Below are positions 3,066-12,445 of a stretch of 64,000 nucleotides of DNA, in pieces. Both the position numbers and the translations under genes were made by a program. Position 1 is the stretch's first letter. Every line of letters starts with the position of its first letter. A model generated the notes under the pieces. It saw nothing but the letters and a program-made list of their open reading frames with translations. It was not told the DNA's origin and did not search any database. The stretch comes from Bacteroidales bacterium (GTDB taxonomy: Bacteria; Bacteroidota; Bacteroidia; Bacteroidales; UBA932), in contig SUYQ01000003.1 in assembly GCA_015060325.1 (NCBI GenBank), forward strand, positions 20,528 to 84,527, written 5' to 3'.

Positions 3066-4414
3066 AGAGGCTTGCCTGCCTTGACTACCTCATTATATTT
3101 ATTGTAGCCTGCCTCATACTCCGGACCTTCTGTATAGAAACGGTAGTAGATATTCTTGAGGTACTCTGCAATATTCACTTTGAGAGCATCATCCTTTGAG
3201 ATGCCGTATGCCTTCTCAAACGGTTCGATGGCATTTTTAAGAGTCTGGGTAAACTGTTCGTTGAGAACATTATACTTCGCATCATCAAGTTCATTTGAAG
3301 CCTTCTCCTGAAGATCAAGTGCGATATTGTAGTACATGATACCCTTGCCGATGTAACCGAACTCATAATCCGGACTGATACTTGAACATGCATCATAAGC
3401 AGCAACAGCCTTCGCAAGATACTCATCAGCATTTTCAGGATCTGCTGCACGAAGTTCATTGTAGATATTGCCCTCAACATAGTAAAGTGAGGCATTATTC
3501 GGCTCATTCTTCTTTGCAAGACCGATAAGATCAAACAGTCTGTTGGAATCCTGCTTGTTCTGGACATAATAGTTGATCAGACCGATAAGAATGTTCTGAC
3601 TCTGAGGGAACTTGGTGAATCCATCCTCAAGAATCTTCACTGCCGCTTCTTTGTCACCGAGATTTGTGTAGATATCCGCAAGTTTCGCAAAGACATCTCC
3701 ACCCTCATGATAATATCCTGTCGCAAGGCATTCCTCAAGATATTTCTTTGCCGAATCATAATCCTTGTTCATCAACGACAGGAAACCGGCATTGTAGAGT
3801 GAGAGGGTATCAATCTGATTGAGAGGCGCAGTTTTGGATGCGTCAGCTGCAAGTGCAAACAGACGGCTTGCTTCATCGAGACGGCCTAAAGAATATGCAT
3901 TGAAAGCATCTGTGTTATATTTGGCATTGATGCTTGAAATACCTGCATTGATATCCTTCAGCTTTGACTGTTTCTCATCAACCTCGTAAGCCTTCTTGTA
4001 TGCCTCAAGAGCCTTTGCAAGAGGTTCTTCGCATACAGGCTTAGTAACTACTATCATCACGAGCTGGGTTGTTGCAGGATCATAATAGAAATCTGCGTGC
4101 TCATATACTTCCTTGAGATACTGTGCTCCATTGAGAGTAACAGCCTCTTCTGACTGAGGTTTCTGTGAGCCCATGAGGAGCATAAGTTCCTGCTTTGAAG
4201 CTCCGACCCATGCATTGCCTGCCGGTGCGTTATATGCATCCATGTAAGCCTCAGCAAGCTTTGTCCATGTAGCGACCTTAGCAGCCTTCTTTGCATCCTG
4301 AGTTGCAGCTACTGCCTTTTCGATTGCCTTAGCGGCAGCCTCTGGAGACTTAACCTGTGCATCAGCAGCCTGCACTGCAGCAAGCATTGCCAACGCGATC
4401 AAAATTCTTTTCAT
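3062..4414 (-). CDS. Exported TPR-repeat protein
   Basis: Signal peptide ending AADA-Q; multiple helical TPR-like repeats (LYNAG..AKKYLEECL). Confidence 0.8.
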   Translation of the reverse strand: MKRILIALAMLAAVQAADAQVKSPEAAAKAIEKAVAATQDAKKAAKVATWTKLAEAYMDAYNAPAGNAWVGASKQELMLLMGSQKPQSEEAVTLNGAQYLKEVYEHADFYYDPATTQLVMIVVTKPVCEEPLAKALEAYKKAYEVDEKQSKLKDINAGISSINAKYNTDAFNAYSLGRLDEASRLFALAADASKTAPLNQIDTLSLYNAGFLSLMNKDYDSAKKYLEECLATGYYHEGGDVFAKLADIYTNLGDKEAAVKILEDGFTKFPQSQNILIGLINYYVQNKQDSNRLFDLIGLAKKNEPNNASLYYVEGNIYNELRAADPENADEYLAKAVAAYDACSSISPDYEFGYIGKGIMYYNIALDLQEKASNELDDAKYNVLNEQFTQTLKNAIEPFEKAYGISKDDALKVNIAEYLKNIYYRFYTEGPEYEAGYNKYNEVVKAGKPL

Positions 4415-4436: not shown

Positions 4437-6965
4437 TTATTCATTATTCTGTTCTGGAGTCTGTTCTACCGGTTGTTCCGCTGGCTGCTCGGGAGTATCT
4501 TCTTCACTCTTGTTGACTGCCGACACAGCTGCAATGGAATCACCCTCCTTGATGTTGATCAGGCGCACTCCCTGAGTTGCACGACCTGCCACCTTGATTC
4601 CTGAAACCGCCATTCTGATAGTAAGACCAGAGCGATTGATTATCATAAGGTCATTCTCATCCGTAACATTCTTGATTGCAACCAACTCTCCTGTCTTCTC
4701 AGTGATATTGAGTGTCTTGACACCCTTTCCTCCCCTGTTGGTCTTGCGATATTCATCAAAGTCAGAACGCTTTCCATATCCATGTTCGCTGACTACGAGT
4801 ATGCTGTGAGCTGCAGCATCTTCAGCAGAAGGATCATAGGTAATCATACCTACAACTTCATCATCTTCATCAATATTTATGCCACGAACACCTGATGCGG
4901 TCCTTCCGAGAGCCCTTGCATCGGTTTCATCGAAACGGCAGCAGCGTCCCTTGCGTCCTGCAAGGAGGATTTCGCTACGACCGTTTGTCATCACTGCCTC
5001 GAGGAGTTCATCACCATCCCTCACAGTAATCGCTATGACTCCATTTGCACGAGGACGTGAATATGCCTCCAGAGAAGTCTTCTTGATGATACCCTTCTTT
5101 GTTCCGAGAACGATGAAATTGTTGTTCACATAGTCCTCATCCTTAAGGTTCTTGACATTAAGGTATGTCTTGATCTTGTCGTCAGGCTCGATGTTGATCA
5201 CATTCTGGATAGCACGGCCCTTTGAAGCACGTGAGCCCTCAGGGATCTCGTATACCTTCAGCCAATAGCAACGACCGTTCTGAGTGAAGAGAAGCATAGT
5301 GCTATGCATGTTAGCAACATAAATGTGCTCTATGAAGTCCTCATCACGTGTCGCACTTCCCTTCATGCCTACGCCGCCGCGGTTCTGGAGACGGTACTCG
5401 GTAAGAGAAGTCCTCTTGATATATCCGAGGTGCGAGATCGTGATCACGACATCCTCATCAGCATAGAAGTCTTCCGGATTGAACTCTTCAGCTGAGAGTG
5501 CGATTTCCGTTCTTCTTGCATCTCCGTATTTCTCCTTCATCTCAAGAGTCTCATCCTTGATGATGCCAAGCTGCATGCTCTCGTTTGCGAGTACATCCTG
5601 ACAATACTGGATGAACTTCATAAGCTCGTCATACTCGCTCTGGAGCTTCTCCCTCTCGAGTCCGACAAGCTGACGCAGCCTCATCTCGACGATCGCAGTT
5701 GCCTGAAGATCAGAGAATCCGAAGCGCGCCATCAGCTCGGCCTTTGCCTCCTCCACGCTCTTCGAAGCACGGATGATGTTGATCACCTCATCAATGAAAT
5801 CAAGAGCCTTGAGGAGTCCTTCGAGGATATGGGCCCTCTTCTGAGCCTTGTCAAGATCGAACTTTGTCCTTCTGATGATCACCTCATGCCTGTGCTTAAC
5901 GAAGTACTTGATGAGCTGCTTGAGATTGAGGGTACGAGGACGTCCGTTGACAAGAGCGACATTGTTTACCGAGAAGCTTGACTGAAGCGGTGTGTATTTG
6001 AAGAGAGTATTCAGTACCACATTCGAATTCGCATCCTTCTTGAGACGGATCACGATGCGCACCCCCTTCATGGTGGTCTCATCGTTGATGTACGAAATTC
6101 CTTCAATCTTCTTGTTCTCAACGAGTTCCGCAATCTTCTCGATCATCTCCCTCTTGTTGACCATGTAAGGTATCTCTGTAACGACTATAGTCTCGCGGCC
6201 AGAGTCACTTACCTCGATATCTGTCTTCGAACGGATGACGATACGGCCCCTTCCGGTTTCAAATGCATCCTTGATGCCCTGACGGCCCTGGATGATGCCG
6301 CCGGTAGGGAAATCCGGTCCTTTTATATAGTGCATCAGCTCCTCTATGGTAATGTCTGGATTGTCGATATACGCACAGATAGCATCGCAGCACTCAGTCA
6401 GGTTGTGCGGAGCCATGTTTGTAGCCATTCCGACAGCAATGCCAGACGATCCGTTCAGCAAAAGAAGAGGAATCTTGGTCGGCAGAACGGTCGGCTCCTG
6501 GAGAGAGTCGTCAAAGTTGTTCTGAAAATCAACAGTATCCTTTTCAAGGTCAGCCAGGACTTCGTCAGAAAGCTTTGAAAGCTTGGCCTCGGTATAACGC
6601 ATCGCAGCAACAGGGTCACCGTCCATCGAACCGAAGTTACCCTGACCGAACACCAGAGGATATCTGAGGCTCCAGTCCTGTGCCATACGGGCCATTGCAT
6701 CATAAACACTTGAATCGCCATGCGGATGGAACTTACCAAGGACTTCACCGACGATACGGGCAGATTTCTTGGTCTGGCTGGTATGTCTCAAACCAAGACC
6801 GTCCATTCCGAAAAGCACTCTTCTATGTACAGGCTTGAATCCGTCACGCACATCAGGAAGTGCCCTCGACACGATTACAGACATGGAGTAGTCGATATAT
6901 GCACTCCTCATCTGCTGGTCAATGTTCACCTGCTCGATCCTACCTGTCTTTACTTCATTTTCCAT
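4437..6965 (-). CDS. gyrA: DNA gyrase subunit A
   Basis: [34 protein letters not shown] (catalytic Tyr), GyrA box QNRGGVG, C-terminal beta-pinwheel repeats. Confidence 0.98.
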
Positions 6966-10589: not shown

Positions 10590-10617
10590 AAAAAGCAGGT
10601 CAGTTGACCTGCTTTTT
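10590..10617. terminator. Bidirectional intrinsic terminator
   Basis: AAAAAGCAGGTC-AGTT-GACCTGCTTTTT between convergent genes. Confidence 0.9.
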
Positions 10618-11486
10618 TATTCTGCCAGTTTATCGAGACAGAGCTCGATAAGTTTGCGGACCTGAGCCTTGTAGTCAGGATTGCTTGCCTTGTGGTGGCG
10701 ATGTGCAATGATGCAACATACAGTTCCGGCATTATGCCCAAGGTGAGCTGCGATGCCGGCGATTGCAGATCCTTCCATCTCGAAGTTGGTGACTTTCTCG
10801 TCTCCGAACCTGAAGCTCTCGAATGTATCAAGCATGTCTGGCATGGCCAACGGCATACGAAGGACTCGTCCTTGAGGACCGTAGAATCCGGACGCTGCGA
10901 TCGTCATACCCTTGACAGTACAGTCACGGAACTTCTCTATCATCTTCTCGCCGGCCCGTACAAAGTAAGGATCAGGGAGATGCCTGTTCCATCCGGTATG
11001 TTTCTTAAAGGCCTCCTCCATGTCAAGAAGTGATATCTTGTCTCTGTCTGCATACCAGTTAAGAAGGCCGTCGCAACCTACTGAGATATGTGAGAAGACG
11101 AAAGCTCCGAGAGGGATTTCCGGCTGGATGGCACCGGAAGTGCCGATACGGAGAATATTGAGTGTGCGATGTTCAGGCTTGACCTCTCTTGTCTGGAAGT
11201 CGATATTTGCAAGAGCATCCAGTTCATTCATCACAATATCTATATTATCTGTACCGATACCTGTTGAAAGCGCTGTCATCCTGACCCCTTTGTACTTACC
11301 GGTTACGGAAACAAATTCCCGTGACTGATGTCTGAATTCCTTCTCGTCAAAATATTCTGCAATCATATCGACTCTGCCGGGATCTCCGACCAGGATCACA
11401 TTGTCGGCCAGCTCTTCCGGACGAAGGTGAAGGTGAAATACCGAACCGTCGCCATTGATTATAAGTTCTGATTCTGCGATTTTCAT
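10617..11486 (-). CDS. udp: Nucleoside (uridine/purine) phosphorylase, PNP_UDP_1 family
   Basis: VGDPGRV, STGIG, RIGTSG, FYGPQGR, NFEMEG motifs. Confidence 0.85.
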   Translation of the reverse strand: MKIAESELIINGDGSVFHLHLRPEELADNVILVGDPGRVDMIAEYFDEKEFRHQSREFVSVTGKYKGVRMTALSTGIGTDNIDIVMNELDALANIDFQTREVKPEHRTLNILRIGTSGAIQPEIPLGAFVFSHISVGCDGLLNWYADRDKISLLDMEEAFKKHTGWNRHLPDPYFVRAGEKMIEKFRDCTVKGMTIAASGFYGPQGRVLRMPLAMPDMLDTFESFRFGDEKVTNFEMEGSAIAGIAAHLGHNAGTVCCIIAHRHHKASNPDYKAQVRKLIELCLDKLAE

Positions 11487-11488
11487 AT

Positions 11489-11955
11489 TCTTTTCGTTTA
11501 ATGGTTGTTCGTATGTTGGATCTGACTGGTGCCGATGAGTAGGTCGAGGGGAAAAATATGAAAATCATTACGTTACCCTTTCCCTAAATCCCTTTCCTCA
11601 GGAAAGGGACTTACCATCGCTCCGCTCAAATCTCTTTTCGTTTAATGGTTGTTCGTATGTTGGATCTGACTGGTGCCGATGAGTAGGTCGAGGGGAAAAT
11701 ATGAAAATCATTACGTTACCCTTTCCCTAAATCCCTTTCCTCAGGAAAGGGACTTACCATCGCTCCGCTCAAATCTCTTTTCGTTTAATGGTTGTTCGTA
11801 TGTTGGATCTGACTGGTACCGATGAGTAGGTCGAGGGGGAAAATATGAAAATCATTACGTTACCCTTTCCCTAAATCCCTTTCCTCAGGAAAGGGACTTA
11901 CCATCGCTACGCTCAAATCTCTTTTCGTTTAATGGTTGTTCGTATGTTGGATCTG
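11489..11955. repeat. Tandem repeat: three 143-144 bp units plus a fourth copy of the 36-bp head
   Basis: TCTTTTCGTTTAATGGTTGTTCGTATGTTGGATCTG starts at 11489, 11633, 11776 and 11920; the intervening ~108 bp are near-identical. Confidence 0.97.
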
Positions 11956-11956
11956 T

Positions 11957-11993
11957 CAAATTTAGTTTTTTACTTTGAATTTTCCTATTTTTG
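11957..11993. promoter_or_regulatory. Divergent -7 boxes for udp (minus, 11957-11964) and the DUF4293 gene (plus, 11986-11993)
   Basis: TAAATTTG on minus; TATTTTTG on plus. Confidence 0.65.
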
Positions 11994-12010
11994 CATCAAA
12001 TATAGAATAT

Positions 12011-12445
12011 ATGTGGAAGAGAATACAAAATCTTTACCTTGCCATATCAACGGCATTCATCATATCAATGCTTTTCTGTAAAATAGGCAACATTCCTGCA
12101 GAAACCGGAAACGACTCGATTATCAGATATCATGAGATAAACTCATTTCTTATAATGATCATCATGATACTGGTCGCCAATATAATGGCCATAATATGTC
12201 TCAAAAAACCTCTTTTACAAGGAAGGGTATCTCTTATAAGCGCCCTGCTGATGATCGGATTCCAGATCTGGCTGGGCATTTCATACATAAAATTCAAGGG
12301 ATGGATGGTATTCTCGGTCAGCATGCTGTTTCCTCTGCTCTGCGCCTTCCTTAACTTCATGGCAGCACGCAGTGCGATGATAGACGGACTTACAATACAG
12401 ACCCTGAACAAGAAAAAGAAAGCGTCTCCTAAAAGAAGACGCTGA
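12011..12445 (+). CDS. DUF4293-family membrane protein
   Basis: MWKRIQNLYL N-terminus typical of this Bacteroidota family; four hydrophobic segments. Confidence 0.7.
   Translation: MWKRIQNLYLAISTAFIISMLFCKIGNIPAETGNDSIIRYHEINSFLIMIIMILVANIMAIICLKKPLLQGRVSLISALLMIGFQIWLGISYIKFKGWMVFSVSMLFPLLCAFLNFMAARSAMIDGLTIQTLNKKKKASPKRRR

Follow-up and report, generated by a model that had tools for sequence, protein, structure and literature searches.

The window analyzed here is a stretch of 64,000 nucleotides (nt) from a Bacteroidales bacterium (contig SUYQ01000003.1 of assembly GCA_015060325.1, positions 20,528 to 84,527), and our subject is a tandem repeat in the leader of a minus-strand nucleoside phosphorylase gene, each unit of which carries a strand complementary to the start codon region of that gene. 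The list of open reading frames (ORFs) and Pfam PF01048 (1e-26) identify the host gene (10617–11486, minus strand) as encoding a PNP_UDP_1 family, uridine-phosphorylase-like nucleoside phosphorylase of 289 amino acids. With the NCBIfam udp and deoD models the protein falls under the curated cut-offs (100.6 vs 280.3 bits for the uridine phosphorylase equivalogs), and 'udp' is therefore used as an approximate name only. The ATG is located at 11486–11484 on the minus strand. Upstream of it, TAAATTTG (11957–11964, minus strand) aligns with the box TATATTTG of the orthologs and is presumably, from what is established for Bacteroides promoters, the Bacteroidetes-type −7 box of the phosphorylase gene; transcription probably starts at about 11950–11956. 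The leader from the ATG (11486) to the −7 box measures 470 nt and consists almost wholly of the tandem array. The intergenic region is bounded by a divergent DUF4293 membrane protein gene (12011–12445, plus strand), which lies outside the element and has its own box, TATTTTTG, at 11986–93.

The array is located between the −7 box and the ATG (11489–11955, minus strand; direct-repeat family D1) and comprises 3.2 units of 143–144 nt, with a period of 144 and 98% matches in Tandem Repeats Finder. In the sense of the gene it reads A-[E1-antiS-E2-A]x3, directly followed by AAUAUG. The A segment, AUCCAACAUACGAACAACCAUUAAACGAAAAG, is an A-rich sequence of 32 nt immediately before the start codon (11490–11521), and its further copies at 11634–65, 11777–808 and 11921–52 form the direct repeats that flank each unit. 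E1 has three parts, the GCGNAGC mini-hairpin, the hairpin UAAGUCCCUUUCC-UGA-GGAAAGGGAUUUA with 13 bp, and a tract reading GGGAAAGGGUAACGU. E2 (CUCGACCUACUCAUCGGCACCAGUCAG in unit 1, 11522–11548, minus strand), which would lie within the 65-nt loop closed by pairing of the strands antiS and S described below, recurs at 11666–92 and 11809–35.

Between E1 and E2 lies the strand of interest. On the plus strand, positions 11478–11489 read GATTTTCATATT and cover the ATG of the phosphorylase gene; in the mRNA this start region, S (AAUAUGAAAAUC, −3 to +9 around the AUG), would provide the 3′ arm of the proposed helix. The exact reverse complement, AATATGAAAATC, is found at 11555–11566, 11698–11709 and 11842–11853 (inverted repeats I4, I9 and I10, respectively) and nowhere else in the 64 kb. 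These minus-strand copies, termed antiS (GAUUUUCAUAUU in the mRNA), occur once per unit, the nearest being 65 nt upstream of S. Counting both strands, the window holds four matches, as compared to 0.00 expected from 100 dinucleotide-preserving shuffles. With the nearest copy the pairing grows to 15 nt with one non-Watson-Crick position (11478–11492 with 11552–11566, 93%), which in RNA corresponds to 12 bp, a G·U and 2 further bp, with a duplex energy of about −14.6 to −15.0 kcal/mol. The units differ mainly in the U/C run lengths beside antiS (UUUUUCCCC, UUUUCCCC and UUUUCCCCC in gene sense, at 11550–11554, 11694–11697 and 11837–11841), and the reach of the helix past 12 bp therefore varies, with 15 bp for the nearest unit and 14 for the others. 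A preliminary description of the locus had reported the exact reverse complement over the AUG, a pairing of 12 nt (about 15 with a G-U) across the start codon and the presence of the anti-start strand in three copies; the sequence, together with the shuffles, bears out all three.

The number of units differs between populations. Contigs with an identical phosphorylase protein hold one, two or three units; the single-unit contigs are k141 assemblies that may be collapsed repeats, and we relied on the JGI contigs, which have two and three units, and on depth. The metagenome and metatranscriptome runs were used as Logan contigs, which are informative for depth and for an empty site in one relative, and not for 5′ ends, strand or inversion. 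The depth of unit-specific unitigs exceeded that of the flanks by 2.1–2.7-fold in runs X1 and X2 and by about 3.5–4-fold in X5, indicating that multi-copy arrays of differing length are real.

To place the array among related leaders, we collected 80 species-level orthologous loci (69–94% protein identity) from Candidatus Cryptobacteroides and other Bacteroidales metagenome-assembled genomes (MAGs), mostly of the ruminant gut. None of the 80 loci gave a blastn match to the unit, and the covariance model of the repeat core described below (R1) matched only one of them, a cow MAG (L013). The other ortholog leaders extend for 25–50 nt after the TATATTTG box and have no unit. In most of the 76 ortholog leaders that were scanned, complementarity to the start region extends over 6–8 nt at the longest, with a few reaching 9–10, and a 12-nt complement is confined to the window lineage and L013. 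In a further relative the site is empty: on a metatranscriptome contig, 24 nt stand between the ATG and the −7 box, and the leader is about 26 nt long (AGGAUUAUUGAUAAC...).

In the udp leader of L013 (2787–2975), an 82-nt derivative of the element is present in 2.3 tandem copies; it has lost the main hairpin but retains the purine tract, GGGTAGCGT and the anti-start strand. Its units and those of the window are homologous over GAUUUAGGRRRAGGGUARCGU and the anti-start strand (local alignment score 32 vs 14.7±2.3 for shuffled sequences). In L013, AUUCUCAUAUUC is exactly complementary to the start of the gene itself, GAAUAUGAGAAU, and a metagenome contig (L177) bears an intact version of the element before the same gene. 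The preliminary description had proposed a switch controlling nucleoside salvage, against which an absence of the complementarity from orthologous leaders was to count. With 79 of the 80 orthologous leaders devoid of the unit and of the complementarity, and the same element placed before unrelated genes, this dedication to nucleoside salvage has to be given up.

The array is instead, with little doubt, a member of a large Bacteroidales repeat family. The anti-start strand is an arm of a structured repeat element, apparently undescribed, that resides in the leaders of many unrelated Bacteroidales genes. The pattern GATTTAGGRRRAGGGTARCGT recovered at least 120 metagenome stretches from ruminant, pig and human gut assemblies. 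The covariance model R1, built on the 63-nt core, found only the three array copies in the window, on the minus strand at 11570–11632 (unit 1; 81.9 bits, E 1e-18), 11713–11775 (unit 2; 81.9 bits) and 11857–11919 (unit 3, with the mini-hairpin loop variant GCGUAGC; 81.2 bits), and 121 matches in 100 metagenome loci, several of which hold two or three dispersed copies or arrays. The core of the unit consists of the GCGNAGC mini-hairpin, a 12-bp pyrimidine/purine hairpin, a mirror purine tract and GGGTAACGT. In unit 1, these parts are the mini-hairpin GAGCGGAGCGA (11617–27), the main hairpin (11585–11613) and the mirror purine tract with GGGUAACGU (11570–84); in units 2 and 3 the main hairpins lie at 11728–11756 and 11872–11900 and the second purine tracts at 11713–27 and 11857–71. 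Across the family, a unit of about 110–145 nt comprises a small GCGNAGC hairpin or a longer one, a hairpin of 12–13 bp, UUU, the mirror tract and GGGUAACGU; after these come an arm that varies, the E2 segment, which is only loosely conserved, and a spacer rich in A. When the unit and E2+A were searched by blastn against all collected loci, the E2+A portion of the window had no homolog beyond its own lineage.

Family copies always lie on the strand of the downstream gene, and in about 29 of the 81 unique copies a co-oriented ORF starts +79 to +94 nt past GGGTAACGT; the typical distance from GGGUAACGU to the ATG is about 80–90 nt. The host genes, as assigned by Pfam, are unrelated housekeeping genes (asd, purE, P-II-like, ABC ATPase, dapB, pyrB, class-V aminotransferase and folD), and lon is also among them; gltX, lpd, uvrA and others are presumably further hosts, as read from N-terminal sequence alone. 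Tandem arrays of the element occur at many loci. The dispersed copies and the presence or absence of the element at orthologous sites are features of MITEs (miniature inverted-repeat transposable elements). The Rfam 15 covariance models, run over 11200–12200 and 11480–11960 at E≤10, gave BTnc231 as the best match (16.9 bits vs a gathering threshold of 80.4); it aligns over a generic hairpin only and was rejected. In twelve family loci, nothing in Rfam matched the element at E≤1, and literature searches, including one with the core sequence, retrieved no description of it.

The core has the signature of a folded strand. In the main hairpin, 98.9% of the cells across the family are paired, with four covarying pairs that switch between C-G and U-A (0 of 500 shuffles), as compared to 33–72% paired in the slid controls. 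Among mismatches on the gene-sense strand, G·U is far commoner than A·C. In the first hairpin the sequence is wholly changed between subfamilies and the hairpin is kept (GCCC-GCGA-GGGC, CACCGC-UU-GCGGUG, GGUC-GUA-GACC and others). In the window, the mini-hairpin GCG-N-AGC (11617–11627, 11760–11770 and 11904–11914) has G, G and U at N, and its relatives have A or C; longer covarying stems stand in its place in other subfamilies. The GCG-N-AGC form is the GNA-triloop mini-hairpin, which is exceptionally stable in DNA.

The case for the second purine tract as a partner of the same kind is weak. The preliminary description had assigned two alternative downstream partners (GGAAAGGGA and GGGAAAGGG) to the pyrimidine tract UCCCUUUCC. 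Both tracts are indeed present in the unit and the first pairing covaries, but the second reaches 87.9% across the family, as compared to 86.1% in shuffled sets and 83% after a slide by −1. What the second tract does is to mirror the 3′ arm of the hairpin (90% mirror vs 67% direct identity, over 15 distinct combinations of the two tracts). The mirror is centered on UUU, as in GGAAGGGGA-UUU-AGGGGAAGG and GGAGAGGGA-UUU-AGGGAGAGG (11570–11613, 11713–11756 and 11857–11900 of the window, minus strand; family loci L086–L205). Hairpin and mirror purine tract are thus better described as the layout expected of a putative intramolecular purine-motif triple helix than as alternative Watson-Crick partners.

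The arm that follows the core was examined in 12 non-redundant copies from the ruminant gut with a CAT-containing arm 3–15 nt past GGGTAACGT. Many of these anti-start copies come from one metagenome assembly, where they stand before different genes (asd, purE, dapB, pyrB, lon, P-II and udp). The ATG of the host lies +81 to +86 past GGGTAACGT in 10 of the 12 and at +63 in L105 and L141. The arm is complementary to its own start region over 12 nt in the window, L177, L150 and L141, over 14 nt in L184 and over 9–10 nt in L168, L170, L113, L097 and L162; in L105 the match is interrupted (UUGGaCAUACU vs AGUAUGgCCAA), and in L103 it is weak. The pairs are locus-specific: GAUUUUCAUAUU/AAUAUGAAAAUC in the window, AUUCUCAUAUUC/GAAUAUGAGAAU in both L177 and L013, UACUUUCAUAUUAC/GUAAUAUGAAAGUA in L184 (asd) and AAGUUUCAUAUU/AAUAUGAAACUU in L150.

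When own and swapped pairs were compared, the longest complement through the AUG was 10.1 vs 8.4 nt (p=0.001), and the duplex energy was −12.2 vs −10.1 kcal/mol (p=0.005). In an alignment anchored on CAT and ATG, 75% of the cells were paired, as compared to 69.6±1.5 in shuffled sets (reached in 1 of 500) and 39–53% in slid controls, and changes on both sides were seen in 10 of 17 pairs, as compared to 5.6±1.4 (0 of 500). One base pair appears to have been adjusted from opposite sides. The start ATGAGAAT with AGA (Arg) as codon 2 is found in 53 of the 80 orthologous loci and AAA in one only; the window has AAA (Lys, 11481–11483), which fits the default UUUUCAU, whereas L177 and L013 keep AGA and carry UUCUCAU. 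The AAA codon, which fits the start region to the family-default anti-start strand, may reflect selection, a templated correction or a chimeric junction of the element. The RNAalifold consensus of nine members includes the antiS:S helix. These copies thus have an upstream strand complementary to the initiation region and apparently kept by compensatory change, as would be expected of an occluding helix, and judging from the place of the array between the −7 box and the ATG both strands should lie in the same transcript.

We propose, as a whole with about an even chance of being right, that the array is a mobile element of the leader and hides the start codon of its host with a long-range helix. 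The element would be transcribed within the mRNA, where antiS as the 5′ arm and the start region S would form a helix of 12–15 bp that closes a 65-nt loop and hides the AUG with the A-rich initiation region. Translation would be lowered, or would become conditional on something that opens the helix, for which the conserved core could offer a handle to some factor or condition. Extra units would supply extra antiS strands and a long structured leader, and in the window three tandem units would have taken over the leader of the nucleoside phosphorylase gene. The sequence complementarity, the membership in the family, the constant geometry, the orientation, the hairpin covariation and the co-variation of antiS with S are observed, and the formation of the helix in vivo, the translational repression and the importance of unit number are what we infer here. 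Bacteroides mRNAs lack Shine-Dalgarno (SD) sequences and rely on A-rich start regions, with 5′ untranslated regions mostly of 23–32 nt, and translation is repressed by Bacteroides small RNAs (sRNAs) acting in trans through pairing over the start codon (PMC7366714, PMC11697453). As such A-rich starts presumably have to be unpaired, and given such repression, a strand from upstream pairing with −6 to +9 is plausible as a cis repressor. As the complementarity is non-chance, in mRNA sense, recurrent at other genes and co-varying with the start region, an occluding helix is a reasonable mechanism; of the translational switch first suggested for this locus, it is this part that gains support from the covariation at other genes.

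Several observations weigh against this proposal. For the one-unit leader, neither the minimum free energy fold nor the pair probabilities contain the antiS:S helix, S being predicted to pair weakly with the downstream coding sequence, and the whole-leader z-score is only −1.2. The helix is AU-rich and has to close a loop of 65 nt. Sense and antisense duplex energies do not differ and the excess of G·U in the helix core is small (7 vs 2), which leaves a constraint at the RNA rather than the DNA level unproven. Across the whole family, a comparable long-range helix is not significant (median z of −0.15) and holds in some subfamilies only. Most of the complementarity is generic: the start AAUAUGAAA, which the family default UUUCAUAUU fits, is very common, and swapped pairs consequently still reach 8.4 nt. 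Three of the 12 members (L103, L162 and L113) pair poorly with their own start, and the register of the anchored alignment was picked for each member among one or two CAT triplets, which slightly favors pairing. Finally, the metatranscriptome contigs that span the leader also reach upstream of the predicted start site and thus prove nothing.

The best placed of the alternatives, possible and yet in our estimate unlikely, is that the complementarity is a by-product of the spread of a selfish element, which lands by microhomology or guide-like pairing, or copies its arm from the flank, and has no regulatory role. The element's own internal helix would then have a 3′ arm that resembles a gene start (AAUAUGAAA). 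Such spread fits a family that is high-copy and patchy, being found before udp in only 2 of 81 compared lineages (those of the window and of L013). At 5130–5310 of L123, in runs X37–X40 of one organism, the depth of core words is 230–466 vs about 5 in the single-copy flanks, which implies either tens of copies in each genome or expression at a very high level; the L123 contigs tile from the element into the downstream gene. It fits equally the direct repeats flanking every copy, which vary from 19 to 62 nt and include leader and sometimes element sequence. The A segment of the window has no homolog in the leaders of the closest orthologs or in that of the empty-site relative; a foreign A segment suggests that the array replaced the native leader, with the AAA of codon 2 as a possible chimeric junction. 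Moreover, the equivalent helix of other subfamilies lies entirely within the element and does not vary, as with GGGCAAUCACCU/AGGUGAUUGCC in many loci and ATTATTTCAT/ATGAAATAAT before a thiamine pyrophosphate (TPP) riboswitch.

A copy convergent with a tRNA-Leu gene points the same way. In L192, the element (about 1886–1988) faces the tRNA (1821–1903), and its arm GGAGTCCCCCCA complements a sequence about 71 nt downstream, in the tRNA flank, that is the antisense of the 3′ part of the tRNA, so that no start codon is involved. This single case, of borderline significance, counts further against start codon occlusion and in favor of an arm that originates by templating or targeting. However, neither a fixed guide nor a fixed internal arm can account for the host-specific matches over codons 2–4 in L184, L150, L177 and L105. 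No transposase or reverse transcriptase was seen, although no genome-wide transposase search was made, and no terminal inverted repeats were noticed by eye, in the absence of a systematic search; the plasmid and phage collections gave no match to the element. The strict orientation with the downstream gene and the G·U pattern of the sense strand likewise fit a role in RNA.

A more elaborate form of the occlusion proposal, which we regard as doubtful, takes the element to be a self-retargeting mobile translational silencer, that is, an RNA cassette of about 110 nt that spreads into gene leaders with its arm matched to a target about 70 nt downstream and its core acting as a triplex handle. The match of the arm, usually to the start codon of the host, would arise either from templating during insertion or from fast co-evolution, and the pyrimidine hairpin and mirror purine tract would form an intramolecular triple helix that serves as a common handle for a factor. 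If so, dozens of housekeeping genes would have gained the same cis-antisense control module.

The preliminary description had also considered a scar of fold-back template switching. As a one-off event at the phosphorylase locus, amplified threefold later, this is very improbable. A short inverted copy of the start region does adjoin a tandem duplication, and template switching is a process that perfects imperfect inverted repeats (quasipalindrome mutagenesis). Nevertheless, the same ATG-centered layout, at the same distance from the conserved 60-nt core and with the ATG 81–86 nt past GGGTAACGT, is found at unrelated genes in other genomes, and local sequence is not the source of the remainder of the unit. 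The perfect matches may still stem from a templated correction that the arms underwent after insertion, and at the level of the family a templated or insertion-linked origin of the arm is a live rival.

A riboswitch or attenuator specific to udp, sensing uridine or nucleosides, is still less probable. It would suit the position in a nucleoside phosphorylase leader and the second udp lineage with a unit (L013/L177), but not the 79 of 80 orthologous leaders without one, nor the same element before asd, purE, dapB, pyrB, lon, P-II, folD, presumably gltX, and others. Copies within one community are near-identical and tandem, unlike aptamers, and no Rfam family applies. Since 11300–12200 contains no terminator-like site, the main hairpin being followed by UUUAGGG, the term 'attenuator' lacks support. 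An invertible DNA switch, in which S and antiS as inverted repeats would flip the 65-bp segment before the start codon, is just as improbable. Bacteroidales are rich in invertons and inverted repeats of 12–14 bp directly flank the leader segment, yet a 65-bp spacer is very short for site-specific inversion, neither strand has a TAnnTTTG box, all assemblies show one orientation, and no strand-changing joints were found in four DNA runs (as contigs, from which rare variants are dropped). Chance complementarity in AT-rich sequence is practically negligible: although the 12-mer is rich in A/T and genes commonly start in the context AAUAUGAAA, none of the 100 shuffles gave even one extra match, the background maximum in ortholog leaders is mostly 6–8 nt, and the feature recurs with compensatory changes.

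Start codon occlusion by a mobile leader element would combine two known kinds, leader-borne repeat elements and start-site occlusion, and the unusual part is the host-matched arm. Small repeats that are co-transcribed into mRNA leaders include Correia/NEMIS in Neisseria and the ERIC/IRU and REP/BIME elements of enterobacteria. In their general features, they share with the present element a size of about 100–150 nt, many copies, intergenic location, lack of coding capacity, stable mRNA hairpins, presence or absence between close relatives and an ability to alter the expression of neighbors. They differ in being defined by single palindromes or by inverted repeats at their ends, and their target duplications are short or absent, whereas the window element has a fixed orientation to the gene, flanking direct repeats of 19–62 nt and a mirror purine tract; none of them is known to have an arm that fits the start codons of its individual hosts. 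In ROSE and fourU thermometers, riboswitch expression platforms and translational operators, an upstream strand pairs over the initiation region and blocks the ribosome, which is the mechanism proposed for the window element. These leaders, however, are single-copy, specific to a gene or regulon, conserved in orthologs and equipped with a known sensor, whereas the window element belongs to a repeat family and is absent from most orthologs.

Within the Bacteroidetes, the GibS and FopS sRNAs are alike in being multicopy Bacteroidaceae RNAs that repress by pairing at or near SD-less start codons, indicating that start codon pairing works in this phylum; they differ in acting in trans, with a single-stranded 5′ seed and a terminator hairpin, their own promoters and susC-like targets (PMC7366714, PMC11697453). 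An identity of the element with FopS/GibS was rejected, given the other architecture and the lack of a match to their Rfam models in the window and in 12 family loci. The 'BrickBuilt' MITEs of Porphyromonas gingivalis are likewise a non-coding Bacteroidales repeat with tandem repeats, and the abstract describing them, to which this comparison is limited, has no start codon complementarity or leader position (PMC4596501).

Bacteroidetes initiate translation without SD pairing, and how initiation is tuned in cis is poorly known. If occlusion by the element is right, a portable module of translational control stands before housekeeping genes (asd, purE, dapB, pyrB, folD, lon and nucleoside phosphorylase), and unit number, which varies between populations, would give rise to rapid changes of expression from strain to strain. 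In annotation, the element accounts for leaders of gut and rumen Bacteroidales that are unusually long and repetitive, and a covariance model and a search pattern are now supplied for a family missing from Rfam. The mirror purine tract and the host-matched arm are directly testable structural features.

Some further features of the family were recorded. A small plus-strand ORF of 9 amino acids, ATGAAAATCATTACGTTACCCTTTCCCTAA, was rejected, since in other members it stands in another frame with respect to the conserved ACGTTACCC. In L143 (2940–3194), a copy lies directly upstream of the TPP riboswitch (RF00059, 55.3 bits, 3097–3194). Immediately before the aptamer stands ATGAAATAAT, a mini-frame (Met-Lys-stop) with which the arm of this copy, ATTATTTCAT, pairs; the gene that follows the riboswitch is, going by its N-terminal sequence only, presumably that of a TonB-dependent receptor-like protein. 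A Bacteroides-type subfamily from the human gut (L104, L183, L201, L095, L121, L132 and L167) has the module of hairpin, purine tract and GGGTAACGT in arrays of units of about 70 nt, which are located upstream of a full element and have a spacer with a GCGCGAAGCGC hairpin between the units.

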